Positions 24,064 through 42,039 of a DNA stretch of 50,087 nt are shown one piece after another. The notes beneath the pieces are model-generated. The model did no database searches. It saw only the letters and a list, made by a program, of their open reading frames with translations, and was not told where the DNA came from. Origin of the DNA: a virus (taxonomy: Duplodnaviria > Heunggongvirae > Uroviricota > Caudoviricetes); IMG/VR virus record IMGVR_UViG_2529292836_000016. One strand, given 5' to 3'. Within the stretch, counting starts at the first letter, position 1. Each line of letters opens with the position of its first letter. The position numbers and the translations under genes are program-made.

Positions 24064-25065
24064 ATGTCGGTTCGTAAGATTCCATCAGGTAAATGGCTTT
24101 GCGAATGTTATCCCTACGGGGCATCGGGAAAACGCATTCGTAAACAGTTTGCGACAAAAAGTGAGGCGCTCTCTTATGAGCGCCGTTTAATGAATAGTAG
24201 AGTTGGAGACGAGTTTCAAGATGGTTCTGGTCCTCGTCTTTCTGAGTTGATTGCTCGTTGGTTTGAGATGTACGGTAAAACCTTGTCCTCTGGTGCAGAG
24301 CGCAAAGTCAAACTTGAGGCGATTTGTTCCAGGCTGGGAGATCCATTTGCTTCGCAGTTTGACAAAAATATGTTTGCTACTTATCGGGAAAGAAGGCTAT
24401 CAGGAGAATGGAATCCCAAGGGGAAGAAAAAACTTAGTGAAGCAACCGTTAATCGCGAGCAGTCATATCTACATGCTGTTTTTGCCGAACTGAAGCGCCT
24501 TGGGGAGTGGTCTGGTGAAAACCCCCTGACTGGTATTCGCAAGTTTCGTGAGGAAGAAAAGGAACTGGCGTTTCTGTATGTAGATGAGATTGAACGCCTT
24601 CTGATTGCGTGTGATGAGTCACGGAATAAAGATTTGGGGGTTGTTGTCCGTATTGGGCTTGCGACTGGTGCTCGGTGGAGTGAAGCAGAAGGATTAAAGC
24701 AATCTCAAGTACTGCCCGGTCGAATCACATTTGTTAAAACTAAAGGAAAGAAGAACCGCACTGTACCGATTTCACCTCAATTGCAGGCTATGCTTCCTAA
24801 AAAACGAGGAGCGCTATTTTCACCATGTTATGAGGCTTTTGACGCTGCAATTAAGAGAGCGAAGATCGAGCTTCCTGATGGGCAATTAACTCATGTGCTA
24901 CGTCACACGTTTGCCAGTCATTTTATGATGCGGGGCGGAAATATTCTTGTGTTGCAAAAAATACTGGGGCATAGCGATATAAAAATGACTATGCGTTATG
25001 CGCATTTTGCTCCAGGTCATTTAGAGGCTGCTGTTGAATTGAACCCTTTTGACAATAGAGGGTAA
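24064..25065 (+). CDS. int: Prophage integrase, tyrosine recombinase
   Basis: 333 aa; 'HVLRHTFASHFMMRGGNILVLQKILGHSDIKMTMRYAHF' carries the catalytic R/H/Y box; adjacent to att. Confidence 0.9.
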   Translation: MSVRKIPSGKWLCECYPYGASGKRIRKQFATKSEALSYERRLMNSRVGDEFQDGSGPRLSELIARWFEMYGKTLSSGAERKVKLEAICSRLGDPFASQFDKNMFATYRERRLSGEWNPKGKKKLSEATVNREQSYLHAVFAELKRLGEWSGENPLTGIRKFREEEKELAFLYVDEIERLLIACDESRNKDLGVVVRIGLATGARWSEAEGLKQSQVLPGRITFVKTKGKKNRTVPISPQLQAMLPKKRGALFSPCYEAFDAAIKRAKIELPDGQLTHVLRHTFASHFMMRGGNILVLQKILGHSDIKMTMRYAHFAPGHLEAAVELNPFDNRG

Positions 25066-26208: not shown

Positions 26209-26288
26209 TCTTCAATCCTGCCCCGTAATAAAAACACCTTCAGATATATATTATTTTCATGATATCAATCAGATACATGAGGATAAAT

Positions 26289-27488
26289 ATGCAAAAATCC
26301 TTCCGATTCACCAATTCATCCATCAAAGCCCTTCCGGCAAACACAGATACCAGATCTACAGAGCTAGAGGTATCTGATACCGAAGTTATTGGACTCAAGT
26401 GCCTCTCAGGTCGAACAGGCAACAAGCGCTTCCTTCTGCGGTATACATTCCACGGTACCAAAAAAAGTATCAGTATTGGCAGATTTCCTGAAATTGATGT
26501 GGGAACAGCCCGGCAAATAGCCCGTCGTCACAAAGAAGCGATTGCGCTGGGAAATGACCCTAAAGCGGAGCGAGATAACTACCGCGCGATGCCAACACTT
26601 GGTGAGTTTTTCCATCAAACCTATGTTCCTTATATAAAGCGCCATAAAAAGTCATGGGATAAGGATGTTCAGCGTTTCACGCAATACATTGAACCTCGTC
26701 TGGGAAAGATACGTTACTGCGATCTCAGGGCCAGAGAGATACAACAGGTGCTGTTTGACATGCTGGAGGGGCGTATTCACGGGCAGCAATATGCGCCGTC
26801 TACCTGTAACAGAGCCCTTGCTATTCTGAAAACGATGGGGCGTTATGCGTTGCGACAGGATGTGCTGGAAAAGAATGAAGCCGATAAGATCCCTTTACTG
26901 AAAGAGAATAATCAGCGGACGCGCTTTTTTGATGCTGATGAGATCAGGCGCATTCTTGACGCTGCTACCCAATATCCCAACAAAGCTGCCGGGGGATTGA
27001 TAGCCATGTTGTTGTTAACCGGTACACGCAAATCAGAAATGCTTAATGTCAGGCATGAACATATCGACCGGGCCAATCGTACTCTGTTCATTCCTTATAC
27101 AAAAAATGGTCGCAGTCGGACGGTATATCTAAGCGATGCCGCATTATCGATTATTGATGCTATCCCACGAGTTGGCAGTAATCCGTATCTGTTCGCCATT
27201 AAGGATAATGGAAAACCGATATCGGAACCCCGATGGGCATATGAAAAAATACTGGCACAGTGCGGTATAGACAAGAATGAAGTCTGTTTTCACACCACAC
27301 GTCATTCTGTTGCCTCTTTACTGGTTTCGAGTGGTCAATTCAGCCTGTATGACGTTAAAGCCCAACTGGCGCATGCCAGTATTCAGAGTACAGAACGTTA
27401 CGCGAAATTAACACCGGAACGTATGCGTCAGACAGGGCAGGGAGTGACTGACCTGCTTCTGAATACTGCGGCTACGAAGCAGATGTGA
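26289..27488 (+). CDS. int: P4-type integrase (tyrosine recombinase with DUF4102-type arm-binding N-terminus)
   Basis: Trimmed to ATG with GAGGA RBS; N-terminal 'FTNSSIKALPAN...FLLRYTFHGTKKSISIGRFPEIDVGTARQIARRHKEAIALGNDP', C-terminal 'CFHTTRHSVASLL...ERYAKL'. Confidence 0.85.
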   Translation: MQKSFRFTNSSIKALPANTDTRSTELEVSDTEVIGLKCLSGRTGNKRFLLRYTFHGTKKSISIGRFPEIDVGTARQIARRHKEAIALGNDPKAERDNYRAMPTLGEFFHQTYVPYIKRHKKSWDKDVQRFTQYIEPRLGKIRYCDLRAREIQQVLFDMLEGRIHGQQYAPSTCNRALAILKTMGRYALRQDVLEKNEADKIPLLKENNQRTRFFDADEIRRILDAATQYPNKAAGGLIAMLLLTGTRKSEMLNVRHEHIDRANRTLFIPYTKNGRSRTVYLSDAALSIIDAIPRVGSNPYLFAIKDNGKPISEPRWAYEKILAQCGIDKNEVCFHTTRHSVASLLVSSGQFSLYDVKAQLAHASIQSTERYAKLTPERMRQTGQGVTDLLLNTAATKQM

Positions 27489-27761: not shown

Positions 27762-27804
27762 ATAGAAAACCAATAACTGTAAATAATAGTTATGCGGATG
27801 TATA

Positions 27805-27838
27805 AAAACCCCGATACGTTAATCGTATCGGGGTTTTT
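27805..27838. terminator. Bidirectional intrinsic terminator
   Basis: 10-bp perfect stem ccccgatacg/cgtatcgggg with A-run before and T-run after. Confidence 0.75.
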
Positions 27839-27856
27839 GTTTATGAGGATTATTCA

Positions 27857-28859: not shown

Positions 28860-29294
28860 ATGCAAACCCAATATGCCTTAAAACAGGCAGGATTAACTCT
28901 GCCTGTTACTAAAGAATTTCAGCAGCATATTACTACTCTTCTGGCAAATCAGGTTTTACAAAAAATAACTGAGGCAGTGGTTATTAATTTCCGTGATCCG
29001 GACTACAGTGCAGAATCCGGGGGCTTTCATCCCGTTGAAATACGGTTTATCCGTAAGAATAATGAATGGTATTTTGATTATGTCACAGATTTTAGTTATA
29101 TGGGGCGTGTCTACCCTGAGCTGGAAAAAGAAATTGATTTTTGCTGGTCGGGGAATTATGTCTTCCATTATCTGATTGGGGATATTTCACTGGCAGCAGA
29201 GAGGAATGAACTCTGGTCCCTGTGGGAGCGTAATTTTATGGAATATCTCTCTATGGGGATTTACCGGGTAACGGTAACTGTGGAAAGTTGTTGA
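28860..29294 (+). CDS. Hypothetical protein (gene 3 of a three-gene cassette)
   Basis: 144-aa ORF; followed about 110 nt downstream by an intrinsic terminator. Confidence 0.55.
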   Translation: MQTQYALKQAGLTLPVTKEFQQHITTLLANQVLQKITEAVVINFRDPDYSAESGGFHPVEIRFIRKNNEWYFDYVTDFSYMGRVYPELEKEIDFCWSGNYVFHYLIGDISLAAERNELWSLWERNFMEYLSMGIYRVTVTVESC

Positions 29295-29407: not shown

Positions 29408-29439
29408 CACGGGGGATCTCAGATCCCTCGTGATTTTTG
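29408..29439 (+). terminator. Intrinsic terminator after the three-gene cassette
   Basis: cacgggggatct...agatccctcgtg stem followed by ATTTTTG. Confidence 0.6.
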
Positions 29440-29467
29440 CCCCCTATGGTGCATTCTCCAGTAGCAG

Positions 29468-29510
29468 GGTGATAACGGTTAATCCATTACCCCAACGACA
29501 GTATTACACC
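29468..29510. repeat. Copy 1 of an about 43-bp imperfect direct repeat (core CATTACCCCAACGNCAGTNTTACACC)
   Basis: 'ggtgataacggttaatccattaccccaacgacagtattacacc'; second copy at 40255-40297. Confidence 0.6.
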
Positions 29511-29595
29511 GGTAATAAATGTTCATGAATACAGTCAGTTATGTGGGTTTTGAGGTGGACTATGTCATCGTTGACGATAACTGAAGGTTTTACAG

Positions 29596-29823
29596 ATGTA
29601 TAAAACTCGCGGTGAAAGGATCGCAGAAAGGCTGTGCTGGATATTACTACAACTGTATACCGGTAATACGGTATCGGTTAATGATATATGTCAGCGTTTC
29701 GCGGTCAGTCGCCGAACCGGACAGCGTGATTTGTTGAGAGTTGAAATTGTAACGGAAACTATTTCACCTGGAAGGGTAAGGCTGGCAAATTTGATAAGGG
29801 AACGAGTTAGACGAAATTTTTAA
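29596..29823 (+). CDS. HTH-only ORF; possibly a truncated WYL-type regulator remnant
   Basis: 75 aa 'RIAERLCWILLQLYTGNTVSVNDICQRFAVSRRTGQRDL' resembles the N-terminal HTH of the regulator at 30785-31687 but lacks a WYL domain. Confidence 0.35.
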   Translation: MYKTRGERIAERLCWILLQLYTGNTVSVNDICQRFAVSRRTGQRDLLRVEIVTETISPGRVRLANLIRERVRRNF

Positions 29824-29904
29824 TCGAATCCATATCAATTCTATAAAATATGAAACTTAACGGGAGTAAATATACACTCCCGTTATAATGCAACCTTTTT
29901 TTAA

Positions 29905-30723
29905 CTACTCAAATGATATTAATTTGGGTGCGACAGTGTTTTTATGACATGTTAAATTCGTAAGATCAATAATATCATGAAACAATTTTATGTCGTCGTC
30001 AGTGAGCTCTACGTCTGGATCAGCTAAATCGGCACAGGTAACATTTAACCAGTGTGTTAATGAATCAATCCTGTTTGAAGTAATATATTCAGTGTGACCA
30101 ATATCCCACTTCCAGTTGATCACCCGAGCAGGTCTGAATCTCACCTCCCGAACCCCAATTGGCGTTACTGACTCTACGAGAGGGTATATCGTGTTAAGTA
30201 CTTTATCATGTTCACTGTAGATATTTAAATGCCCCATTTTTGAACCGTAAACCATTTTCATTATGTTCTCTGTATAACTTGTTATTGGGGTGGCTCCGGC
30301 CATAGAGATTGTTAAGAGAATATTATCATTTTTAATATAGGGTAATGTATTGTTTATTAATCGAGTCCCTAAAGAATGACCCATTATGATCACATTACGC
30401 TTTTCTTTAACGTATATTTCGTTTATTACGTGTGCTAATTTTTCTCTGTTATTAACTGCTGCTTTCGTTGCATTATACCAGGCCTGACGCGCTTTAAATG
30501 GAATGGAGATTGATGACAATAAAGGAGATGTTCTCAGGGGGAAGAGAGTATATAACCCCCACTTGTTCGCTATGTCAGAACTTAATATGGATAGTAGATT
30601 TGCCGATTCCCATTTATAGTATCTGACATCAAGGCCACACCCTGCTTTAATTCGGTTAAACCATGATATATCATTTTCGGTCAGAAACCCTGATACAACA
30701 AGAAGAACGGGGCATTTTTTCAT
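29905..30723 (-). CDS. Alpha/beta-hydrolase-fold protein (GHSLG nucleophile elbow)
   Basis: 272 aa; 'VIIMGHSLGTRL' GxSxG motif; AT-rich; immediately downstream of and co-oriented with the WYL regulator. Confidence 0.55.
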   Translation of the reverse strand: MKKCPVLLVVSGFLTENDISWFNRIKAGCGLDVRYYKWESANLLSILSSDIANKWGLYTLFPLRTSPLLSSISIPFKARQAWYNATKAAVNNREKLAHVINEIYVKEKRNVIIMGHSLGTRLINNTLPYIKNDNILLTISMAGATPITSYTENIMKMVYGSKMGHLNIYSEHDKVLNTIYPLVESVTPIGVREVRFRPARVINWKWDIGHTEYITSNRIDSLTHWLNVTCADLADPDVELTDDDIKLFHDIIDLTNLTCHKNTVAPKLISFE

Positions 30724-30784
30724 GGTAACTCCATTTTTTAGCTTACAAAAATAGCACTCAATGAAAATTATATTATCCGTGTCA

Positions 30785-31687
30785 TTACGGGGCGTTACTT
30801 GGCTGGGTGTAACGTTTCAGTGCGGATTGTATATCTTCAGCAAATTGTTGACGGATTGAGGCCGGTTGTATTACTTCGACATCCGGTATCCAGTATTTCA
30901 TTAAAGGCATTATCTGATCTGTGTGTGTTACACGTGATATCACCAGTAAATCGCCAGACCGGGAAGTATGAATTATTTCCTGTCCTGGCAATAGATGACG
31001 GTGGGTAAACCACGGAGCAACATGTGCGGAAACTGAAATAAGAACTTCGATAAGGTCTTCGCTATACCAGATACCATCTGTCTTTTCTATTTTTTCATTA
31101 ATTTCGGGGATTATCCTGAAAGAGATATTACTCATGCAAACGTCTTTGACAGATGAGATAACAAAGCTTTTTAATGTACTGTCATGGACGGCAGCGAGAT
31201 ACCACAATCCGTTGTCATTAACCAGTCTGTATGGCTCAACAGCCCGAAACTCTTTATCTTTGTAATTAAAATTTACTTTCTTCTGTGACAGGATGGCATC
31301 GGATAATACATTCAGAATTGACATGAATGATCCGCAGTTTTCGTATGGACGTTGTTTTATCAGAAACGGGTTGTTTTTCGTGTTACCTAACAAAATACTC
31401 AGTAGTCTGTCATCCCAGCGAGGGAACAGCCCTTCAATACCCAGGATGCGCGTGAAATGACGTAAATCAGCATTGCTGCGTTGACCGAGAACACCGTCAG
31501 ACAGGCGATAGCGACCATTTTGTCGAATCAGATTAAGATAGGACAGGCGCTGAGTAAGATCACGACGGATAGTTTTTTCGCAAACGTTAAATTCCTCAGA
31601 TAACTCCCGGACGGCTAGTGACTCACCATTGTTCAGGCGAGTTAATATCAATCCGAGTCGATATCCAAGTTTATCGTGCTTACCCAT
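30785..31687 (-). CDS. WYL-domain transcriptional regulator (HTH + WYL + C-terminal extension)
   Basis: 300 aa; N-terminal HTH '[21 protein letters not shown]'; central '[30 protein letters not shown]' WYL signature. Confidence 0.7.
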
Positions 31688-31737
31688 TCGTTTATCCGGT
31701 TAATGCCAGCGAAGAGGATATTTTCAGCAAAGTAACG

Positions 31738-31846
31738 GACAGGATGAGTCCACTTTTACTGTGACGGAGAAAAAAATTAACTCATTAATTATCAATATAT
31801 TAAAACATTACTGGAATCATCGAATAACATGTGGACTCATCCTGTC
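31738..31846. promoter_or_regulatory. 16-bp perfect inverted repeat pair (GACAGGATGAGTCCAC / GTGGACTCATCCTGTC) upstream of the WYL regulator
   Basis: Arms at about 31738-31753 and 31831-31846, 77-bp spacer, within the divergent promoter region 31688-32066. Confidence 0.4.
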
Positions 31847-32066
31847 CATGTGTATTTTTACGTTCAGGGTGATAATTATTATCCTGACCTGTACATGACA
31901 TGTTTTTGCTGCATATTTGACCATGCACTTTTGCCATCAAGTCGGAGAGGCAGGGGGGAACGTAAGATCCGAAGGTTAGAGAGGTTATCAGCAATTACAA
32001 TGATGATTAATATTTTCATAATATCGGAGAACATCATATTAGTTGAAATAACATAAAGGTGGTTCT

Positions 32067-32393
32067 ATGTATTTACATATCAGAAAGTATCAACTAGTAA
32101 ATGCGAGATGGCGTGATGTCATTGATCTGACAGATTATGAAGAAACAATCAGGCAGGTTGTCGGTACATTATTTGGAAATGATTTTATTGAGGTCAGCGT
32201 TGAAACAAATTGTTTTACTCTGACAGTAAACAGTACAAGCAGTAAAATACCACACGGCATACTGGTGAATATGGGGAAAAGGCTGGCGGCTAATCTCCAG
32301 AGTATCACCTGTCATGCCATGCGGATCTATCATGTAAATGGCCATCCTGACGCGCGGCAGTTATTTCACTGTTTTGATGCCGATTGCCTGTGA
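32067..32393 (+). CDS. Hypothetical protein
   Basis: 108-aa ORF, convergent with the polymerase gene. Confidence 0.4.
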   Translation: MYLHIRKYQLVNARWRDVIDLTDYEETIRQVVGTLFGNDFIEVSVETNCFTLTVNSTSSKIPHGILVNMGKRLAANLQSITCHAMRIYHVNGHPDARQLFHCFDADCL

Positions 32394-32441
32394 TTAAGCC
32401 CCCAACTTCTGTTAAAGGAGTTGGGGGAGATTTAACGGTTA

Positions 32442-35042
32442 TCAGACTGGAAGACAGAATGTCGGATATTTACGGGCTATGATATCCATCAGTGACTTCA
32501 TTCGCGGTGTTACAGAACTAAATTTCATTTGGGGTATTTTTGCTCTTACCGCATTTTTTACATCAGTCACCGTTACTGAATAGCCTTCTGACGTCAGCCA
32601 TTCAGCAACCTCTTTACAGGAATAACTTTTTTTATCTTTCAGCATAAGCCCCCATTGGCACTGAGTCAGCGCCCGGAGAAATAGTCTGACTAAAATATCA
32701 TCACTACGTTTGCTTCCGACTTTTAGTTTCATATCAGAAAACACCGTCCGGCAATAGAGAAAATCACCCCAGTCATCCCAGTCAGCCAGGGTCTTCAGTG
32801 TATGCGTTTGCCGCCAGTCGTCGAAAAGAGAGCGTTGCTGCAGAGCCTCTTCCATATTATCCCACGGGCGGGAAAACATCAGTAAATGCCCTTCATTCAT
32901 GGCGGGCTGTACGGGCTGGCGTTTGAAATCGAATTCCAGATTAAGACGGATATCCTGTTCCCGGGATACCAGATCGCTTTCCGACAGCCACATCTCACGC
33001 GTTGATATCAACGTACTTCGGGATAACGTCTGACCGGGTAAACGATTAAGGTAAAGATCTACCATATAGTCGTTATAGTCACTGCGTGGAATATCGGCAG
33101 GAGGTTTGACGCCAGCCCTGGCATGAACAACCGGTTTTCCCTGAATAGCTCTATAGGTTAACTGCCCCCGGGTTTTCATGGCGATAAGCTGGCTGACCTC
33201 ATGCTTACATGTCAACATTGATGAACCCGGATCAACAATATCGCACAGCGACTGGAAGCGGGAAGACAGTGGACCGCTCATGTTTATCTTGTCAAGTGGG
33301 CAATTTGTCAAAAAGCCATCGGTTGTGACGCTGACAACCGATGAATCAGAAGGCAAAGCATTCATGAGTTCCCCGACAACGGCCCGGATAAATCCCGTCA
33401 CATGCGCAGCAAAGAATGGCTGAGTAACCGATGATGGTGGGAGGGATCTGTTTAATCCACGGGCTGTATCAAAGGCGGTTTTGGCGCGAAGGCCCTGAGC
33501 AAGTTTACCATAAAGCGAGTTGCCAATTTCTTTCCAGAATTTCTCCTCCAGAGAACCTTTAATATGGCGATTACGGTTCTCACGGACCTGTTGAACAAAG
33601 GGAAGAAACACCGATGTTGATTCGCTGTTATGTGGGGAGGTGTCACAGATCCAGGGGACGATGATCCCATTATGGATCGTCATCTCTGCCCCGAGCGACA
33701 GAGCAAGTTCGATTTCAGGTGCCGTTGCCCATGATTCGCCACTTAATGGAAAGAATAACCCATATTGATCGGTCCGAACCGGCAGGCTGGGATAGGGAAC
33801 TGATTCCGGGAACCGAAATGTGACAAGCGCAAATCCCATTACATGCCCACAGTAATCGTCCGGATTTTTACTGAGGCGGATGTTCCCGTAATCGGGTGTG
33901 AGGATATCTAATAGCCCGGTGGTATACGCTCCAGCCAGATCGTAGTCATACCAGTGATCAGACGGTGTAACCCCCATCATAAAACACTCATTGCGTCCGC
34001 CGTGGTAACAGTTGATCGGGAACGTTTCAAACAACTCTCTTGAAGGAACACTGGCGGGGTTTTTAATCGTCCGGAATGCCTGTTTCTCCGTGAGCCAGAG
34101 TTCACGGGTTTTAATGTGTGTCCCAAGGCAGACTTCAGGAGAAATATTGTTTTCTTTAAGTGTTTTGGTGAACCGTGAAACTGCCATCGCCCCGATGGTG
34201 GCGGGGACACGATCAATCATCAGCTCCCGGGCGCAAAAATTGCGAACCTGTAAAGCATAACGAACCGCAATCTCGGCATCCCGCAGAGCATAGGCTTCAA
34301 ACCCTGCTCTGTCGCCCAGAAGATATTCACGCATATTGGTTATGGAATAAGGTGCAGGAATGGTGAGTTTGGGAAGACCCAGTAATTCACCACATTCAGC
34401 CAGACCCATACCCCCGGGAGTGATAAGCAGTGTATCGATGAAAGCTACGTTACTGCAACGCGGAGGGGAAGTTCGTTTGTCAAACATTATCTGTTCAGTC
34501 TTTACGCGACGTTCCTGCTGTTCATCAAAATCGATACCGTAACGATTTTTGAAGCTGCTGACAGTACCGCGTATTCCTTTCAGAAGAATTTTGTAGTCTG
34601 ACCAGAAATTGGCAAAGGAGGCGATATCCGCACGAATGAAATGCGCATATATATTAATAATACCGGGCCATTTTGTAATCACACCCGTTTCAAGAAGCGG
34701 TGTAATCGTTTGACAGAGAAATTCCTTAAAAGACAGCCGGGATTTTTTCTGTGAGTCAGGTGGATAGATAATGTTCGATATACCTGTATTATCGGGTAAG
34801 ACAACATAACTCTGATATGACAGAATATCATTCTGTCGTGTTTCAGGGTTGAAAACATATTCGGTATCAAAACCGATATGGAGTGTCAGGTCACTTGAAA
34901 TAACAGATACTTTTTTTGATGCAGGTGGTATCACAGGATAATCATCAAGCGTTTTAGGTCTTTTACGATTGAGCGCAGGCTCTGAAGTCACGGACTGATA
35001 CCCCGAGGCGGCAGCGAGGATGTCCTGCAAATTATTGCTCAT
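32442..35042 (-). CDS. Family-B DNA polymerase, primer-independent (piPolB-like)
   Basis: Trimmed to 'MSNNLQDIL...' (GGAG RBS); 'IGFDTEY' ExoI D-x-E, 'KEIGNSLYGKLAQ' motif B (Kx3NSxYG), 'VTTDGF' motif C-like, 'KTRG' KxY-like. About 866 aa. Confidence 0.7.
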   Translation of the reverse strand: MSNNLQDILAAASGYQSVTSEPALNRKRPKTLDDYPVIPPASKKVSVISSDLTLHIGFDTEYVFNPETRQNDILSYQSYVVLPDNTGISNIIYPPDSQKKSRLSFKEFLCQTITPLLETGVITKWPGIINIYAHFIRADIASFANFWSDYKILLKGIRGTVSSFKNRYGIDFDEQQERRVKTEQIMFDKRTSPPRCSNVAFIDTLLITPGGMGLAECGELLGLPKLTIPAPYSITNMREYLLGDRAGFEAYALRDAEIAVRYALQVRNFCARELMIDRVPATIGAMAVSRFTKTLKENNISPEVCLGTHIKTRELWLTEKQAFRTIKNPASVPSRELFETFPINCYHGGRNECFMMGVTPSDHWYDYDLAGAYTTGLLDILTPDYGNIRLSKNPDDYCGHVMGFALVTFRFPESVPYPSLPVRTDQYGLFFPLSGESWATAPEIELALSLGAEMTIHNGIIVPWICDTSPHNSESTSVFLPFVQQVRENRNRHIKGSLEEKFWKEIGNSLYGKLAQGLRAKTAFDTARGLNRSLPPSSVTQPFFAAHVTGFIRAVVGELMNALPSDSSVVSVTTDGFLTNCPLDKINMSGPLSSRFQSLCDIVDPGSSMLTCKHEVSQLIAMKTRGQLTYRAIQGKPVVHARAGVKPPADIPRSDYNDYMVDLYLNRLPGQTLSRSTLISTREMWLSESDLVSREQDIRLNLEFDFKRQPVQPAMNEGHLLMFSRPWDNMEEALQQRSLFDDWRQTHTLKTLADWDDWGDFLYCRTVFSDMKLKVGSKRSDDILVRLFLRALTQCQWGLMLKDKKSYSCKEVAEWLTSEGYSVTVTDVKNAVRAKIPQMKFSSVTPRMKSLMDIIARKYPTFCLPV

Positions 35043-35088
35043 AGTTAACTCCGAAAAAATGCCGGGAGCTGTGTCCCGGCATAAAGAA

Positions 35089-35727
35089 TCAAGATTTAAT
35101 AACATTTACTACAGATTTGAAAATATCGGTTTTGTGTGATTCATCATCTACATGGATAAAGGAAACGAGTTTCCTGCCTACTTTAATCAGGATACCGCGT
35201 TGCGTCTTTTCCACAGACGGGGTAACGTGTGCAGATAACAGACAATGTTCATGTAAATGAAGAAACTTTTTTGAGGCGTAGCCGCCATGTAATCGGGCTT
35301 GAATGTCAAGATACATATCATCAAGAGAACCGGGTTCTCCTGATTCACTCAATACCGGATAACCCTTCTTATCAAAGAGGTTAAGGATAGATTTACTATC
35401 ATGTTCGAACAGGGTAACACCGTAAATGTATTTCATTCGAAAGGTGAGGGAATCGGTGGTGTAGACCTCCTCCTGACGATTGAAATTTTTGAGACGCCTG
35501 GCTAATTCATTAAAAACAGCACGAGCAGTAGCCGTGTCCTGCAGGGTGTAGGTATAAAGTACGAAGCCATCTGTGCCGATGAGCTTTACTAAGTTGTCCA
35601 TAATCGTGATAGCGAGAACTAATGCAAAGGACAGATATTTTTCATCGTTGTCTACAGCTGTGTTTGCTGCTTCAGGAAGAATGTTCAGTGCATTATTAGC
35701 ATTATTTGCTGTGTTCTTAGTAACCAT
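35089..35727 (-). CDS. Hypothetical protein, co-transcribed between alpA-like gene and the polymerase
   Basis: 212-aa ORF, AT-rich. Confidence 0.5.
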   Translation of the reverse strand: MVTKNTANNANNALNILPEAANTAVDNDEKYLSFALVLAITIMDNLVKLIGTDGFVLYTYTLQDTATARAVFNELARRLKNFNRQEEVYTTDSLTFRMKYIYGVTLFEHDSKSILNLFDKKGYPVLSESGEPGSLDDMYLDIQARLHGGYASKKFLHLHEHCLLSAHVTPSVEKTQRGILIKVGRKLVSFIHVDDESHKTDIFKSVVNVIKS

Positions 35728-35917
35728 TTATATCACCTTTAAGTTTGTTTTGACGATGTGCATTTTCCCACTCAACAATATCATCAAGAGAGAATCGTAT
35801 AGCCCGCCCAATTCTGATGAAGGGCGGGAGTTTTCCTGGGTTGCGCGATATATCTGACGCAACCGTGGATGCGGAAAGATTAAATCTTTCTGCAAACTGC
35901 TTAATGGTTAAATACAT
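35717..35917 (-). CDS. AlpA-family HTH regulator / excisionase-like
   Basis: 66 aa; 'LTIKQFAERFNLSASTVASDISRNPGKLPPFIRIGRAIRFSLDDIVEWE' matches the AlpA/Xis pattern. Confidence 0.65.
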   Translation of the reverse strand: MYLTIKQFAERFNLSASTVASDISRNPGKLPPFIRIGRAIRFSLDDIVEWENAHRQNKLKGDINGY

Positions 35918-36059
35918 AAACCTCCGGTTTTAGAGAAGAAGAAACCACGCGGATTTAATATCAATCCACATTCTTTGATGACTTAATGCAGGGCCCTGCA
36001 GAAGCATGCAATGACAATACCGTCCTTAAACGAGTGTTGCATCAATCACGAATCACAGA

Positions 36060-37196
36060 TCATAGGTTCATTTTTGTGTCATAACTTTCTATGACCTGAG
36101 AAACCACTGCGTGTGATGTCGCTGCATTGTGAAAAGCGTAGCGACGGGTCGCCGTGAGTGAATGGTGATTTAGCAGATGGGAAGCGATTGCAATATCCCC
36201 GGTCGCCTGTAGTACCCGGGTGGCAAAGGTACGGCGCAGGTCATGCATCCGCAGGTTATCAATGTTGGCATCCCGACAAATACGGGCAAAGGTTGCACGC
36301 GGATATGCCAGAGGGCGGGCATTGTCGGTTAGTTGTGGAAAAATGTAAGTTTTGCTGAGCATCAGGTCTTGCTGGCACTCGACAACTGCAATGGCTGGAG
36401 GTGCAAGTGGGCAGGTGAAAGGGTGTCCGGACTTTGTATCAGGCAGTATGAGTTGATGCATATCCGGGTGCCAGTACTCCCATTTCAGGGTACATACCTC
36501 ACCAATACGCATCCCCGTATAAAGAGCAAGCAATATAGAATCAGCTGCCGGTGTTTGCAGCGCTGTTGCCGCGTTAATAAAGCGCGGGATTTCTGTCGCT
36601 GACAGTGTGCGATAGCGAATGTTATTTTCTTTCAGATAGCGGACATGTGTCATCGGGGAATGCGTGATCCATCCAGCACGTACTGCCAGAGAGCATATTT
36701 TGGACAATATTGCGAGGATACGGTTTACTGTTGACGGACGTAATTTTTCCCGTAAGCCAGCAGCATATTGTTCTAGTTCTCCTGCCGTGATGTCGCGAAG
36801 TTGCCGCTTGCCCCAGAACGGGCGAACGTAGAGGTTGAGTTTTGACAACTCTGACTGAGGACTCTTTTTATACAACTGCAAATCCGGTAGCCACAGGTCA
36901 TTGATGGCCTGTTCCACAGTTAATCGACGGGACTGAACCGCAAGACGATTTTTATCAGCAAGCAGTTTCATCACATGCTGACGGGCATCCTCAACGCAGA
37001 GCTGAGGGAACTGACCCAGGGTTTCATATATACGCTGATTGTTTATAGTGGCACGAAAGGCCAGCGTGATCCGATTGGGATACACCAGAGCACGCAGGTT
37101 TTGGCAGTGAATATCACGGTATTCCTGACAACCCGTGAGGGGATGTGGAAGTTGGTGAAGTGATTTGTTGCTGAAACGCAGATCCAGAATAGGCAT
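36060..37196 (-). CDS. Tyrosine recombinase (XerC/D-like)
   Basis: 378 aa; 'LRMHDLRRTFATRVL...ASHLLNHHSLTATRRYAFH' catalytic R-H-R-Y box. Confidence 0.8.
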   Translation of the reverse strand: MPILDLRFSNKSLHQLPHPLTGCQEYRDIHCQNLRALVYPNRITLAFRATINNQRIYETLGQFPQLCVEDARQHVMKLLADKNRLAVQSRRLTVEQAINDLWLPDLQLYKKSPQSELSKLNLYVRPFWGKRQLRDITAGELEQYAAGLREKLRPSTVNRILAILSKICSLAVRAGWITHSPMTHVRYLKENNIRYRTLSATEIPRFINAATALQTPAADSILLALYTGMRIGEVCTLKWEYWHPDMHQLILPDTKSGHPFTCPLAPPAIAVVECQQDLMLSKTYIFPQLTDNARPLAYPRATFARICRDANIDNLRMHDLRRTFATRVLQATGDIAIASHLLNHHSLTATRRYAFHNAATSHAVVSQVIESYDTKMNL

Positions 37197-37339
37197 CGTA
37201 TTTCTCCTGTAAATGACACTGGAAAAATACGATGTGAGGTTATAGTCTGCCAGTTACAGCTTTCACAGTTCATCAGGTGAAAAAACGCAGATTCGGATAT
37301 AATGGCAACACAATTCCATGTCGCCATTATATTAAGAAA

Positions 37340-38470
37340 CTACAGTTTCATGATCTTGTTCGCTATTTTTTCGAAGTAAACCTCATTCTTAAGAAGAGTG
37401 ATATTGTTTGTTTGAACACCCAGACCACTGGAGGTTGACTGGAAGTTGAGTGAACCACTTATCACTGTGGACTTTCCTGATAAAAAGGAAATCAACTCCT
37501 TGGAAGATGGTGCCCACTCAGGGTTTAAGAGTAATGCAATATAGATATATGTCTTACGAAGCAATTGTTCTATATCTTTTTTATGCCCTGTAGTGTTTTG
37601 CTTACCTTTAATGCAAATAGATTTGATTATGAACTCATCAGGGCTGGTTAAAGGCGTTTTAAACTCACTCAGTGATCCATCGTTATGAATGACTTCATAA
37701 GGCAGCATAGATAAAATGATCAATGCAATCATTTTAGGATGATAAAGGTAGTTATCACGAATGATTTTTCCTGCCTTCATTGTATTGAGCGTTGTTTGAA
37801 TAAATACAAAAAGATATTCAGAGCAAAAGTAACAAAACACAAGCCAGGATAGGTCAATGGATGGAATGTTAATATCCTTAGGTAGTTTGTTTAGCCAGTA
37901 TTCAGACTTCAAAAAGGTCCTGATTTCAACAGTATATTCATGCATTTTTGCGCTGAAATCAAGCATTGCTACTTGACCTGATTGTTCCGTAACTGTGTGG
38001 TCTATAAATGTTAGTGTATTGCACATTTTATCCAGCGTGTTTTGAAAACAAGAAAGGAGTTCGGCATTATTATTACCATTAACCGCAGATGAAAGTTCAG
38101 TTTTAATAAATGCATCCAGTAGCATACAGATTTCTTTCGGAATGACATTTTTACGGGATTGCTGTGAATAGAAATGTACTGCCAGTAAATTAAAGGCAGT
38201 GCACTCCTTTTTTAACCATTGTTCGAGCACTGGGACGTGCTGAAAAAAATTGATATGCTTAGCAGTAGATGCTGATGGAGATAGTACATGAAGAATATCT
38301 ACAGCAGGCTTCATTTGCAATATTTGATCGGATTCGGTAGTCGTCATTAGTTCCAGTAATTGCTGTTCAGAAAATAGTTTAGACAGGTGATCAATGTCTT
38401 TTTGGTATTGATTAAGTTTTGTTAAATTCCCCGGTATACGGGTTACATTGTTTTTCATTTTCTCGAACAT
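37340..38470 (-). CDS. Hypothetical protein (AT-rich orphan)
   Basis: 376-aa ORF, very AT-rich; no recognisable motif. Confidence 0.5.
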   Translation of the reverse strand: MFEKMKNNVTRIPGNLTKLNQYQKDIDHLSKLFSEQQLLELMTTTESDQILQMKPAVDILHVLSPSASTAKHINFFQHVPVLEQWLKKECTAFNLLAVHFYSQQSRKNVIPKEICMLLDAFIKTELSSAVNGNNNAELLSCFQNTLDKMCNTLTFIDHTVTEQSGQVAMLDFSAKMHEYTVEIRTFLKSEYWLNKLPKDINIPSIDLSWLVFCYFCSEYLFVFIQTTLNTMKAGKIIRDNYLYHPKMIALIILSMLPYEVIHNDGSLSEFKTPLTSPDEFIIKSICIKGKQNTTGHKKDIEQLLRKTYIYIALLLNPEWAPSSKELISFLSGKSTVISGSLNFQSTSSGLGVQTNNITLLKNEVYFEKIANKIMKL

Positions 38471-38976
38471 AATTTTATCCTCGTTTGAATTATTACACTG
38501 ATTTAAAAAGTAGCATGTCGTGTTAGCGAGGTAATCCTAAAACGTGAATGGCAGCAGGGGCAAGCTTGAATCTGCGTAAGGATATGGCTTGAATTTAATG
38601 GTGTAATCAGTGAGTTAGAGGCTTATAGCCATTTAAATACAATAAGTTATGATAATATATGGCGGGTGTAAATCGGTTAGTTTTTATGGTTAAAATATGA
38701 GCATTGTGAGATTTGAGATATGATGGTTTTTAAATTACATACAAGTTACCCCTGATGATCAGTATTAATACCAGAATGATACATGCGAGCAGCACCCAAT
38801 CCTGTACTATTTATGATGGCTATACAAGGCTGAAACTTTGAGTCGTATGTTGCCAGGAGGATTAATGTCCACAAGGCCCAGATAGAATGATTTCTCAGAT
38901 ATTAAAGTTGAAACTTATTAACTATGTGAGAGGCTGATATTTATTCAGTCTCTCATTTGTTTTTATCGTTTTAAAG

Positions 38977-40212
38977 TTAAAAGGAAATAAATAATGCCTT
39001 CCGCCGATGAATCAGTGTACTGATTTCTCGAAAATCAGCCTCAATACTACCAACATCACCAAAGACTTCACCACTAATCTCTCTTCGATTTTTCATGAAA
39101 TTGGTGCTTAATAAGCTTTCTTTTTTTAGTGTCACTAATTTTGGTTTTATATCGTTATAGAAATGCTTACGGCTTACCCTGATGCTATGAATCGAGTAGT
39201 AAACTGTTTTATACATCAAAAATATAAGTAACTGGCCGAGAAGATATTCTTTTTCAATGTATTTATATTGAGAGGATTTTTCGCGTTTCGCCAGGTAGAA
39301 AACATGAGGTGCGATGATGGTGGGGATGAAATCCAGTGCTGGAGAGGTTTTTGTTTTTTCTGTTTTTCTTCCGGATTGAAGATGTTGAAGTACAGAGTAT
39401 ACAATGCTTAATATTATGGCATTGCTTATATTATTAATTTCAGTTGGGTAAATATGCAGGTTGCTTATCAATTCTGAAAGGCAAAGTAAAACACCAGTGA
39501 TGTTGGGTTTTCTGCCAGAGATTGTGGTGCTGTTGAAAATGTGACGATTCTTACGACTTATATTGACAAGTTTATGAGTGCAGAACTCTATATGTTCGAC
39601 GATTTTATCTTGACTATTTTTAATGTATTTTGAAATGTTAGTGATCCGGCCATTCAACGTTAGTTCATCAAGCAATATATCATTTTTAATATTGCGAATT
39701 TCATCGCAATGTTCACATTGAGAAACTATCTCATGTAATACATAACTCGACGTATTGCGGGGTGACGCTGATATGTAATCTAAAATAGAAGGTTCGATTT
39801 TGATTTTTTGTTTGTATTTTTTAATGCACTGTTTGATTGTTTTTTGTAGAGTATTTGAGATGTGTTTTTTATATTCTTTTAGAAAATCTTGCTCTAAAAA
39901 GAGTGAGGAGAAGATCAACTGCTGGCGAGATAATTTAATCTCAGGCTTGATCAATTTAATCCGAAAAACTCTTCCCTCCAACTCATAGCTGAACATGGAA
40001 GATAAGTCATAGTGGGGTGATAAATGTTCGAGTAACGACATTCGTGTATTCATTAGCCGCTTGAATTTATGGTCAGCATACATAAGTGTTTTTTTTATTT
40101 GCTCATCATAAAGTGGGCCGATAGCGCAGTTGGCAATACTCATTCTATCCGGAGACCTCCAGTCAGCAGGGGAATCACATTGACGGTCATCATTACTATC
40201 AAAGGGCATCAA
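38977..40212 (-). CDS. Hypothetical protein (AT-rich orphan)
   Basis: 411-aa ORF, Lys/Ile/Asn-rich; no recognisable motif. Confidence 0.5.
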   Translation of the reverse strand: MMPFDSNDDRQCDSPADWRSPDRMSIANCAIGPLYDEQIKKTLMYADHKFKRLMNTRMSLLEHLSPHYDLSSMFSYELEGRVFRIKLIKPEIKLSRQQLIFSSLFLEQDFLKEYKKHISNTLQKTIKQCIKKYKQKIKIEPSILDYISASPRNTSSYVLHEIVSQCEHCDEIRNIKNDILLDELTLNGRITNISKYIKNSQDKIVEHIEFCTHKLVNISRKNRHIFNSTTISGRKPNITGVLLCLSELISNLHIYPTEINNISNAIILSIVYSVLQHLQSGRKTEKTKTSPALDFIPTIIAPHVFYLAKREKSSQYKYIEKEYLLGQLLIFLMYKTVYYSIHSIRVSRKHFYNDIKPKLVTLKKESLLSTNFMKNRREISGEVFGDVGSIEADFREISTLIHRRKALFISF

Positions 40213-40254
40213 CGTTGCCGATTATGGATCATGTCAGCTCCACACACCAGAACG

Positions 40255-40297
40255 GGTGATATATGGATCATCATTACCCCAACGGCAGTTTTACACC
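40255..40297. repeat. Copy 2 of the about 43-bp imperfect direct repeat
   Basis: 'ggtgatatatggatcatcattaccccaacggcagttttacacc'; pairs with 29468-29510. Confidence 0.6.
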
Positions 40298-40515
40298 ATG
40301 GCTAATATGGATGCTATCTTACTAAGATAATTGGTTTTTAGCGAGTGACGAGCCAGGTTGTGTCAGTCTGTCTCATGTCGATATTACGGGGATGATGCAA
40401 ACCTGAATGCTGCGATATTGGCGTGTCAGGGGAGGCATCTTACGGTATCATTTACCGCAATTTTTAAGATGCAAAGCCCTGCATCGCTAGCTTTTTCTTC
40501 AGACCAGGATGATTC

Positions 40516-42039
40516 ATGAACGACAAAATCAGTCAGGACACGATCAACAAAGCCCTGTGGGCCGCGTGTGATACGTTCCGTGGCACCATCAGTGCTGATA
40601 CCTATAAAGACTTTATCCTTACCATGCTGTTCCTCAAGTACATTTCAGATGTCTGGCAGGATCACTATGACGAATACAAAGAACAGTATGGCGATGCGCC
40701 GGAACTGATTGAAGCGATGATGGCCAACGAGCGTTTTGTACTGCCAAAAAGTGCCAGCTTTTATGCGCTGTACGAACGCCGCCATGAGCCGGGTAACGGT
40801 GAGCGTATCGATCAGGCGCTGCATGCGATTGAAGAAGCCAACGGCACCAAACTGAAAGATGCCGGGAAAAGCGTGTTCCAGGATATTTCGTTTAACACTG
40901 ACCGCTTGGGTGAAGAAAAACAGAAGAACACCATCCTGCGCCAGCTGCTGGAAGACTTTGCCGGTGAAGATCTTAACCTGAAGCCAAGCCGTGTAGGTAC
41001 GCTGGACGTTATCGGTAATGCCTACGAATATCTGATTAAAAACTTTGCCGCCAGCGGTGGGCAGAAAGCCGGGGAATTCTATACGCCGCCGGAAGTTTCG
41101 GACCTGATTGCAGAACTGCTCGATCCGCAACCGGGTGATACCATCTGTGACCCTGCCTGTGGTTCTGGTTCGTTGTTAATGAAGTGCGGGCGTAAGATTG
41201 TCTCCGGGCATGAAAGCCGTAACTATGCTTTGTTCGGTCAGGAAGCGATTGGCTCCACGTGGTCGCTGGCGAAAATGAACATGTTTCTTCACGGCGAAGA
41301 CAACCACAAAATCGAGTGGGGCGATACCATTCGTAACCCGAAGCTACTCGATAAAAATGGCGACCTGATGCTGTTTGATATCGTTACCGCTAACCCGCCG
41401 TTCAGTCTGGATAAGTGGGGCCATGATGAGGCCGAGAACGATAAGTTTGGTCGTTTCCGTCGCGGTGTACCGCCGAAGACTAAAGGAGATTACGCCTTTA
41501 TCTCGCATATGATAGAAACCCTGAAACCGGGAACGGGTCGTATGGGCGTAGTTGTGCCACACGGTGTGCTTTTCCGTGGCTCCAGCGAAGGTAAAATTCG
41601 CCAGAAACTGATCGACGAAAATTTGCTGGATGCGGTAATTGGTCTGCCGGAAAAACTGTTCTACGGTACGGGGATTCCGGCTGCGATTCTGATTTTCAAA
41701 AAGCAGAAAGTTGATGATAAGGTGCTGTTTATCGATGCCAGCCGTGAATTCAAGGCAGGTAAAAACCAGAACCAGCTTAGCGAAGAAAACATTAAGAAAA
41801 TCGTCAAGACCTACCGTGATGGCGATAACGTCGAGAAATACGCCTATCTTGCCAGCCTGAAAGAGATTCAGGACAACGATTACAACCTCAATATTCCGCG
41901 CTATGTCGATACCTTTGAAGAAGAGGAAGAGATCGATTTGCTGGTCGTTCACGCTGAGCGGGAGGAATTGAAAGCGGAACTGGCGAAGCTGGAAACGGAG
42001 ATGGAAGGGTATTTGAAGGAGTTGGGTTATGGCGTTTAA
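40516..42039 (+). CDS. hsdM: Type I restriction-modification methyltransferase subunit
   Basis: 507 aa; 'DPACGSGSLL' AdoMet motif I and 'NPPF' N6-adenine motif IV; overlaps hsdS start. Confidence 0.9.
   Translation: MNDKISQDTINKALWAACDTFRGTISADTYKDFILTMLFLKYISDVWQDHYDEYKEQYGDAPELIEAMMANERFVLPKSASFYALYERRHEPGNGERIDQALHAIEEANGTKLKDAGKSVFQDISFNTDRLGEEKQKNTILRQLLEDFAGEDLNLKPSRVGTLDVIGNAYEYLIKNFAASGGQKAGEFYTPPEVSDLIAELLDPQPGDTICDPACGSGSLLMKCGRKIVSGHESRNYALFGQEAIGSTWSLAKMNMFLHGEDNHKIEWGDTIRNPKLLDKNGDLMLFDIVTANPPFSLDKWGHDEAENDKFGRFRRGVPPKTKGDYAFISHMIETLKPGTGRMGVVVPHGVLFRGSSEGKIRQKLIDENLLDAVIGLPEKLFYGTGIPAAILIFKKQKVDDKVLFIDASREFKAGKNQNQLSEENIKKIVKTYRDGDNVEKYAYLASLKEIQDNDYNLNIPRYVDTFEEEEEIDLLVVHAEREELKAELAKLETEMEGYLKELGYGV

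Follow-up and report, generated by a model that had tools for sequence, protein, structure and literature searches.

The window, i.e., the whole stretch of 50,087 nucleotides recorded as IMGVR_UViG_2529292836_000016, consists of a prophage inserted in tRNA-Leu followed by an Escherichia coli pipolin, and its sequence is 100% identical to E. coli chromosomes, e.g., those of strains F5505-C1 and E2528-C1. The pipolin carries a short intergenic sequence, referred to here as the box, which occurs twice in direct orientation on either side of a core module (Table 1). The reading made beforehand from the letters alone (the sequence-only reading) placed a hydrolase/WYL pair, the primer-independent family B DNA polymerase (piPolB), an alpA-like gene, a tyrosine recombinase, and two orphans between the copies. 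This gene content is borne out, and three open reading frames (ORFs) absent from that list, HTH75, orf108, and orf212, are found there as well. The recombinase was equated with the “IntP2” type (PMC11551731) because of its position beside an excisionase (Xis) and piPolB. HTH75, a winged helix-turn-helix (HTH) ORF, resembles the DNA-binding domain of the WYL regulator. It is unannotated in the RefSeq record inspected, and homologues in other records are named “DeoR family transcriptional regulator”; the family was encountered solely in enterobacterial genomes that apparently carry pipolins, with 73–76% amino acid identity in divergent pipolins. To the right of copy 2 lies a type I restriction-modification (R-M) system plus further defence cargo.

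The box core, CATTACCCCAACGNCAGTNTTACACC, has exactly two occurrences in the window, both on the plus strand and spaced 10,787 nt apart. The two copies are identical at 24 of 26 positions, differing at core positions 14 (A/G) and 19 (A/T). In 100 dinucleotide-preserving shuffles of the window, no core match was obtained even when three mismatches were allowed. The imperfect direct repeat of about 43 bp described from the letters alone is therefore real, but the conserved unit is the core only: the longer version (29468–29510 and 40255–40297; 32/43 identical) is composed of GGTGATA, 10 nearly unrelated bases, and the core, and copy 2 is without the GGTGATA part in other pipolin lineages. In this window, a looser similarity (TTGCC..TATGG..CCAG..GGGTGATA) is present about 45–55 nt further to the left of the repeat. 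By inspection, the core shows neither dyad symmetry nor inverted-repeat recombinase-binding arms around a 6–8-bp spacer; its only internal symmetry is a direct repeat, TTAC(C/A)CC, spaced 17 nt, plus an 8/10 palindrome, AACGGCAGTT. Rfam covariance models gave no match at either copy (E ≤ 1). No tRNA is present at either copy, and the box is internal to the island rather than at its ends.

Table 1. Positions of the box copies, associated signals, and neighboring genes in the window.
Feature	Position	Strand	Identified by
IntSXT-type integrase	26259–27488		
DUF2787 gene	28860–29294		
Intrinsic terminator-like hairpin with T-run at the end of the transcription unit IntSXT...DUF2787, shortly before copy 1	29408–29432	+	
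GGGTGATA box upstream of copy 1	29467–29474	+	
Box copy 1, core CATTACCCCAACGACAGTATTACACC	29485–29510	+	Repeat search, cross-locus comparison
HTH75, winged-HTH ORF of 75 residues (weakly matching HTH_11/DeoR), 85 nt after copy 1	29596–29823	+	
DUF726 α/β-hydrolase-like gene	29905–30723	−	
HTH-WYL-WCX regulator	30785–31687	−	
Pair of perfect 17-nt inverted repeats, GGACAGGATGAGTCCAC, on either side of the WYL promoter region	31737–31753 and 31831–31847		
orf108	32067–32393	+	
piPolB, primer-independent family B DNA polymerase	32442–35105	−	
orf212	35089–35727	−	
HTH_17 (AlpA/Xis-like) gene, 66-residue product, directly downstream of IntP2	35717–35917	−	
Tyrosine recombinase, equated with the IntP2 type	36060–37196	−	
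Hypervariable core orphan	37340–38470	−	
Extra 411-residue orphan, confined to the window-type lineage, located between hypervariable orphan and copy 2	38977–40212	−	
Box copy 2, core CATTACCCCAACGGCAGTTTTACACC; contains −35-like TTTACA at 40290–40295	40272–40297	+	Repeat search, cross-locus comparison
−10-like TATCTT, 19 nt after TTTACA of copy 2	40315–40320	+	
σ70 promoter GTGTCA-17-TATCAT, proximal to hsdM, conserved across clades	40423–40451	+	Consensus scan
hsdM, first gene of the type I R-M/defence cargo block	40516–42039	+	

The box is conserved across pipolins that have otherwise diverged considerably. In those of Scandinavium, Buttiauxella, an Enterobacter metagenome-assembled genome, Intestinirhabdus, and Serratia, the piPolB protein is only 71% identical to that of the window, and the WYL, piPolB, and IntP2 genes share 69–74% DNA identity with it; a 24-nt core, TTACCCCAACGGCAGTTTTACACC, is identical or one to three bases off at both positions. 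Even in a pipolin with a 50% identical piPolB (L095), copy 1 still matches at 25 of 26 positions. Core variation is limited to positions 14–16, position 19, and the first two bases, leaving the blocks TTACCCCAACG and GT.TTACACC invariant. The inner flanks of both copies are diverged or unalignable, and the outer flanks, to the left of copy 1 and to the right of copy 2, are conserved. Such near-invariance amid unalignable non-coding DNA calls for direct selection on the box sequence and is incompatible with a decaying scar; both copies are under strong purifying selection, which makes “scars of modular exchange”, one of the three explanations offered by the sequence-only reading, unlikely. The pattern has its exceptions in L095, where copy 2 is degenerate and indel-bearing despite intact IntP2 and Xis, and where a third degenerate site is located between piPolB and WYL; remnants of a third copy are also found in D-type loci.

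A 30-nt box query was compared with 5426 complete E. coli genomes and was found in 468 of them, at 737 places (1–4 per genome, median 2). The box is confined to genomes with pipolins or pipolin remnants. On these figures, a dispersed repeat of the repetitive extragenic palindromic (REP) or enterobacterial repetitive intergenic consensus (ERIC) type, or a genome-wide promoter element, was ruled out. The sequence-only reading had named a common genome-wide promoter element without boundary association as the outcome that would speak against it; the observed limitation to pipolin and remnant carriers is the opposite of this. The single four-place genome checked, E. coli GD33 (L094, NZ_CP076646), contains two pipolins in tandem at tRNA-Leu, with two IntSXT/DUF2787 sets and four boxes. 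This tandem pair contrasts with a report in which no pipolin “reinfection” was detected in Enterobacterales (PMC11551731).

A further sample, comprising 13 piPolB loci from a one-genome-per-species collection, 72 metagenome contigs with the box pattern, and other loci, yielded 104 box instances, all of which are of either the copy-1 type or the copy-2 type. The left flank of the copy-1 type is GGTGATAACG, bar three single-base variants, and the copy-2 type has the hsdM leader as its right flank in nearly all instances. Where both copies are present on one contig, they are always direct and 9.1–10.8 kb apart. IntP2 and HTH_17 lie between the copies in the window and also in L010–L015, L095, and L100. 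Distant pipolins with different architectures or on short contigs (L096–L099) lay outside this comparison, and a tblastn search of plasmids found only very distant plasmid pipolins. The earlier proposal to look for the motif at module boundaries in other pipolins was thus rewarded: in all enterobacterial pipolins examined, the core module is bounded by the boxes.

Copy 1 is accompanied by the octamer GGGTGATA, whose spacing to TTACCCC is fixed at 12 nt in most copy-1 sites; point variants exist, e.g., GGATGATA in L010. The octamer is found at 29467, 31867, 40015, 40254, and 41133, always on the plus strand and only in the pipolin part of the window. It is over-represented (5 observed vs. 1.1 expected, a count reached in 0 of 100 shuffles), with three copies in regulatory regions and two within genes.

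Module borders were compared in order to locate the points at which sequence similarity changes. Against divergent pipolins, identity rises from about 70% or unalignable to 89–95% exactly at 40272/40274, i.e., the left edge of copy 2. Homology to another E. coli pipolin, L003, stops at 37285 and is restored at 40256. The metagenome contig L081 matches the window at 99–100% as far as 29483; from the box on, it agrees instead with a divergent lineage at 100%, placing its crossover within 29484–29502, inside the copy-1 core. Other mosaic patches end about 50 nt from the box, and since these breakpoints lie outside it, general homologous recombination must be frequent. The breakpoints at the box are explained equally well by general homologous recombination via identity islands and by site-specific recombination. 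Two apparent complications were resolved: the differing left flanks abutting copy 2 are not “unrelated insertions”, as they represent one fast-evolving homologous gene (36–46% amino acid identity), and an apparent extra left-flank type, L036, is an IS5-family fragment.

Losses of the module were also traced. The only module-specific one occurs in strain I4 (L004, NZ_CP195978), in which a deletion at a microhomology (AGA) extends from about 29628, inside HTH75, to about 40150. I4 keeps both boxes, 259 nt apart, in an IntSXT-DUF2787-R-M island without piPolB. The remaining losses are mediated by the insertion sequences (ISs) IS3, IS5, and ISKpn26. In other genomes, ISs have inserted independently at several points in a stretch of about 150 nt around copy 2 (~40170–40325; L002, L018, L019, and L093), namely IS3 at 40173, IS1 at 40221, IS5 at 40237, and ISKpn26 at 40322; these insertions are associated with deletion of the pipolin core and retention of the R-M cargo. 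More than 340 conjugative IncFIB/FII plasmids of Klebsiella (e.g., L093, K. pneumoniae NZ_CP022125) carry the cargo block hsdM-hsdS-yecA-hsdR-M48-DUF262x2-hhe together with a single box, copy 2. These plasmids were rejected as proof of box-mediated transfer, because their left border is the IS1 insertion at window position ~40221 and not the box; they do provide a concrete route for the pipolin-to-plasmid exchange of defence genes reported previously (PMC11551731). In Serratia marcescens (L100, GCA_030770935.1, 19931–20234), only about 54 codons remain of the hsdM beside copy 2, and a UvrD-helicase/PD-(D/E)XK gene comes next; here the cargo has been replaced, and the box and leader upstream of it are intact.

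The arrangement of the two copies tentatively favors, with somewhat less than even confidence, a role for the box as a shared pipolin-specific cis-regulatory (promoter/operator) site for two transcription units. Both copies are intergenic, have the same orientation, and are each located upstream of a gene on the same strand. Copy 1 directly follows the terminator-like hairpin, which is strongly conserved across clades, and its distance to the ATG of HTH75 is 85 nt in the window, 80 nt in L010, and 83 nt in L095; the distance from copy 2 to the hsdM ATG is 218 nt in the window and 217 nt in L010. The variation at core positions 14–16 and 19 has the pattern of a spacer between two half-sites. 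In the proposed reading, the box would be a bipartite protein-binding sequence, with TTACCCCAACG and GT.TTACACC around a tolerant center, and its 3′ end would supply a −35-like TTTACA for a rightward promoter. This hexamer matches the −35 consensus at five of six positions. In a scan with a σ70 position weight matrix (PWM), TTTACA-N16-GA(T/C/A)ATT scored best among the promoter candidates located between copy 1 and HTH75, both in D-type loci and in L095; the L100 sequence has the same −35/N16/−10 arrangement at copy 1. At copy 2, TTTACA-N19-TATC(T/C/A)T is conserved in the scanned lineages despite diverged spacers; in Serratia, whose right flank differs, the spacing is kept and the hexamer is TATCAC.

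In this arrangement, copy 1, on the left border of the core module, would head the HTH75 gene, and copy 2, on the right border, would head the long hsdM leader of the defence operon. As the same box precedes both bracketing transcription units, both would answer to one DNA-binding protein, most plausibly the adjacent HTH75, acting on its own promoter and on that of the cargo. The promoter activity, the choice of binder, and the direction of regulation are proposals drawn from sequence patterns. As an identity island between diverged pipolins, the box may additionally serve as a passive crossover point for the homologous exchange of modules. Two further observations were counted in favor of regulation: derivatives formed by IS-mediated deletion or capture that retain the R-M cargo retain the box (IS3 at 40173, IS1 at 40221, and IS5 at 40237), and the WYL gene possesses a distinct palindromic site, probably an operator of its own. 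The confinement of the box to pipolins, paralleled by that of the HTH75 family, was likewise counted in favor. Among the three options of the sequence-only reading, “shared promoter/operator elements” is the best fit. A consensus promoter scan was empty at both copies, where the −35/−10 pairs fall below its threshold.

That empty scan is one of several points that weigh against a regulatory role. The PWM scores are modest (7–10 bits), the 19-nt spacer at copy 2 is suboptimal, and the −35 of the E. coli-type copy 1 is weakened by a T-to-A change (ATTACA). A separate, better promoter is located about 125 nt downstream of copy 2, nearer to hsdM. Moreover, the box is without dyad symmetry, which is unusual for HTH dimers, and its 24 contiguous conserved bases exceed the need of most operators. 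Finally, the third degenerate site of L095 has no gene downstream in the box orientation. Comparison by eye with the σ54, σ32, CRP, DnaA, and IHF consensus sequences gave no convincing match to the box, and no consistent candidate for a leftward promoter overlapping copy 2 was found.

Other functions within a transcriptional or coding context were considered as well. A binding site for the WYL regulator is unlikely, given that the WYL gene is preceded by conserved 17-nt inverted repeats of its own and lacks a box. An AlpA-type antitermination site was dropped, since the AlpA of Pseudomonas aeruginosa, a larger (roughly 140 or more residues), Q-like protein that recognizes GGGACG (PMC9371919), is unrelated to the 66-residue HTH_17 protein encoded here. 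A small coding ORF across the box was rejected: the sole frame common to both copies is interrupted by a TAG in L011/L015, and conserved start codons are lacking.

A doubtful but substantial competitor to shared regulation is that the boxes are attL/attR-like attachment (att) sites recognized by IntP2 together with the HTH_17 excisionase. Recombination between the direct repeats would then release the HTH75-WYL-piPolB-Xis-IntP2-orphan module (~10.8 kb) as a circle replicable by piPolB, and the module would pass from one IntSXT-type defence island to another by integrating at a single box. The direct repeats do bracket exactly the segment with the recombinase and excisionase; the conserved outer and variable inner flanks conform to a B-O-P′/P-O-B′ pattern; the jump to 89–95% identity coincides with the left edge of copy 2; the L081 crossover falls inside the copy-1 core; and the three related sites of L095 partition the element into modules. 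In addition, IntP2 has no assigned site and was perhaps incorporated later from another mobile element (PMC11551731). Against this, a synthetic empty-site query of the 5426 complete E. coli genomes returned no precise single-box junction, only I4 with both boxes kept, and none of the 104 box instances from genomes and metagenomes (0/104) is a hybrid of the left of copy 1 with the right of copy 2, or a circle junction. The other module losses are IS-mediated, mosaic breakpoints elsewhere lie outside the box, and Illumina data showed no episomal pipolin (PMC7385651). The core is devoid of inverted-repeat recombinase-binding arms, and the copies of one element differ centrally in the E. coli type, L011/L015, L079, L100, and L095: at core positions 14 and 19 in the window, at 14, 15, or 16 in L079, L011/L015, and L100, and nowhere in L010. 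The inner flank of copy 2 is hypervariable across clades, being replaced even between elements with 98% identical IntP2, and therefore holds no conserved arm-type sites. L095, with intact IntP2 and Xis, nevertheless has a degenerate copy 2. The earlier suggestion of “recombination sites for the internal recombinase” thus keeps the bracketing and the breakpoints at the box and lacks an excision product, a dyad, and a copy-2 arm, with central mismatches adding to the difficulty. The more specific version, in which the boxes are att sites of a nested element whose 10.8-kb piPolB module is excised by IntP2 and Xis as a circle and replicated primer-independently, is unlikely. If it were true, the pipolin would be a self-replicating mini-element lodged in an IntSXT-type defence island and hopping between islands at a single box.

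It is quite improbable that the boxes are assembly relics, i.e., duplicated target or att sequences from an ancestral tandem accretion of modules, which now act as identity anchors for RecA-dependent swapping without a dedicated binder. The third degenerate copy at the piPolB/WYL junction of L095 and the remnants in D-type loci are consistent with such an origin, as is the frequent mosaicism of pipolins, with some junctions at the box. However, a relic would decay as the third copy did, whereas both boxes are essentially invariant and the neighboring non-coding DNA is beyond alignment. Even less credence is given to another kind of cis site, serving piPolB replication loading or recognition, partition, or oriT-like mobilization by a helper element. 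The asymmetry of the box, its strong conservation, its pipolin specificity, and its fixed places would suit such a site, and some D-type elements have TATCCTGC after copy 2, which we take to resemble an IncP-type nick motif. Yet the nick-like motif is not conserved between lineages, so an oriT-like nick site after copy 2 was dropped, and the module has no relaxase or partition gene. We also know of no reported origin requirement for piPolB, which we count against this possibility.

In the pipolin literature consulted (PMC7385651, PMC9710591, and PMC11551731), only terminal att-like repeats at tRNA-Leu are described, with IntSXT as the main integrase and IntP2 as a “secondary” one, and the internal repeat is unmentioned. 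The box is therefore undescribed in that literature, although the kind of feature is known. The terminal repeats of E. coli pipolins (attL/attR at tRNA-Leu, the ExplorePipolin reference) are likewise direct, conserved between strains, and delimit a piPolB-containing unit (PMC7385651, PMC9710591). In contrast to them, the box is internal, unrelated in sequence, without tRNA overlap, and brackets only the core module rather than the whole island. The attL/attR sites of P2-type (IntP2 family) systems with an excisionase also are ~25-nt direct repeats around a recombinase and an HTH_17 excisionase, with conserved outer and variable inner flanks; the box differs from them in having no inverted-repeat core or copy-2 arm, in the central heterology of its copies, and in the absence of attB/attP forms from the population data. 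Shared operators, such as the C-protein C-boxes of R-M systems and the operators of the WYL regulators BrxR/CapW, similarly are short element-specific boxes upstream of a small HTH gene and a defence operon. Unlike these, the box is non-palindromic, WYL probably has a separate palindromic operator, and copy 2 lies ~125 nt upstream of the hsdM-proximal promoter.

Pipolins have been called “bimodular”, with a core and exchangeable defence cargo (PMC11551731). Neither a cis element at the module border nor a DNA site for the second recombinase or the small regulators is reported in the literature consulted, and the box provides an exact landmark. With base precision, it marks where core and cargo meet, and it can help to delimit pipolin cores in draft genomes. 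It is also a candidate operator linking the core module to the expression of the defence cargo and an obvious primer or probe target for excision of the core module.

Several neighboring features deserve mention. The 17-nt inverted repeats in front of WYL are conserved in divergent pipolins and in L095, differ from the box, and probably constitute the operator of that gene. Positions 31864–31887 hold another palindrome, TCAGGGTGATAATTATTATCCTGA. In the other loci compared (L003, L010–L013, L063, and L079), the homologues of the orphan at 37340–38470 adjoin copy 2. At 36–46% amino acid identity, this orphan evolves far faster than IntP2 (71–79% in the same run) or piPolB (71%), and this fast divergence suggests diversifying selection. 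Between the IntSXT gene and the next ORF, a weak match to a CopA-like antisense RNA was obtained at 27773–27842 on the plus strand; it is below the threshold (36.5 bits vs. a gathering score of 60, E = 0.002). The prophage occupies the first ~25 kb of the window and is integrated within tRNA-Leu, with its integrase at 24064–25065. Only the 3′ half of the tRNA gene (25172 onward) adjoins the pipolin, and ARAGORN finds no tRNA because the prophage splits it. The prophage part begins, at positions 2–334 of the window, with about 2.5 tandem copies of a 132-nt unit that are ~80–90% identical.

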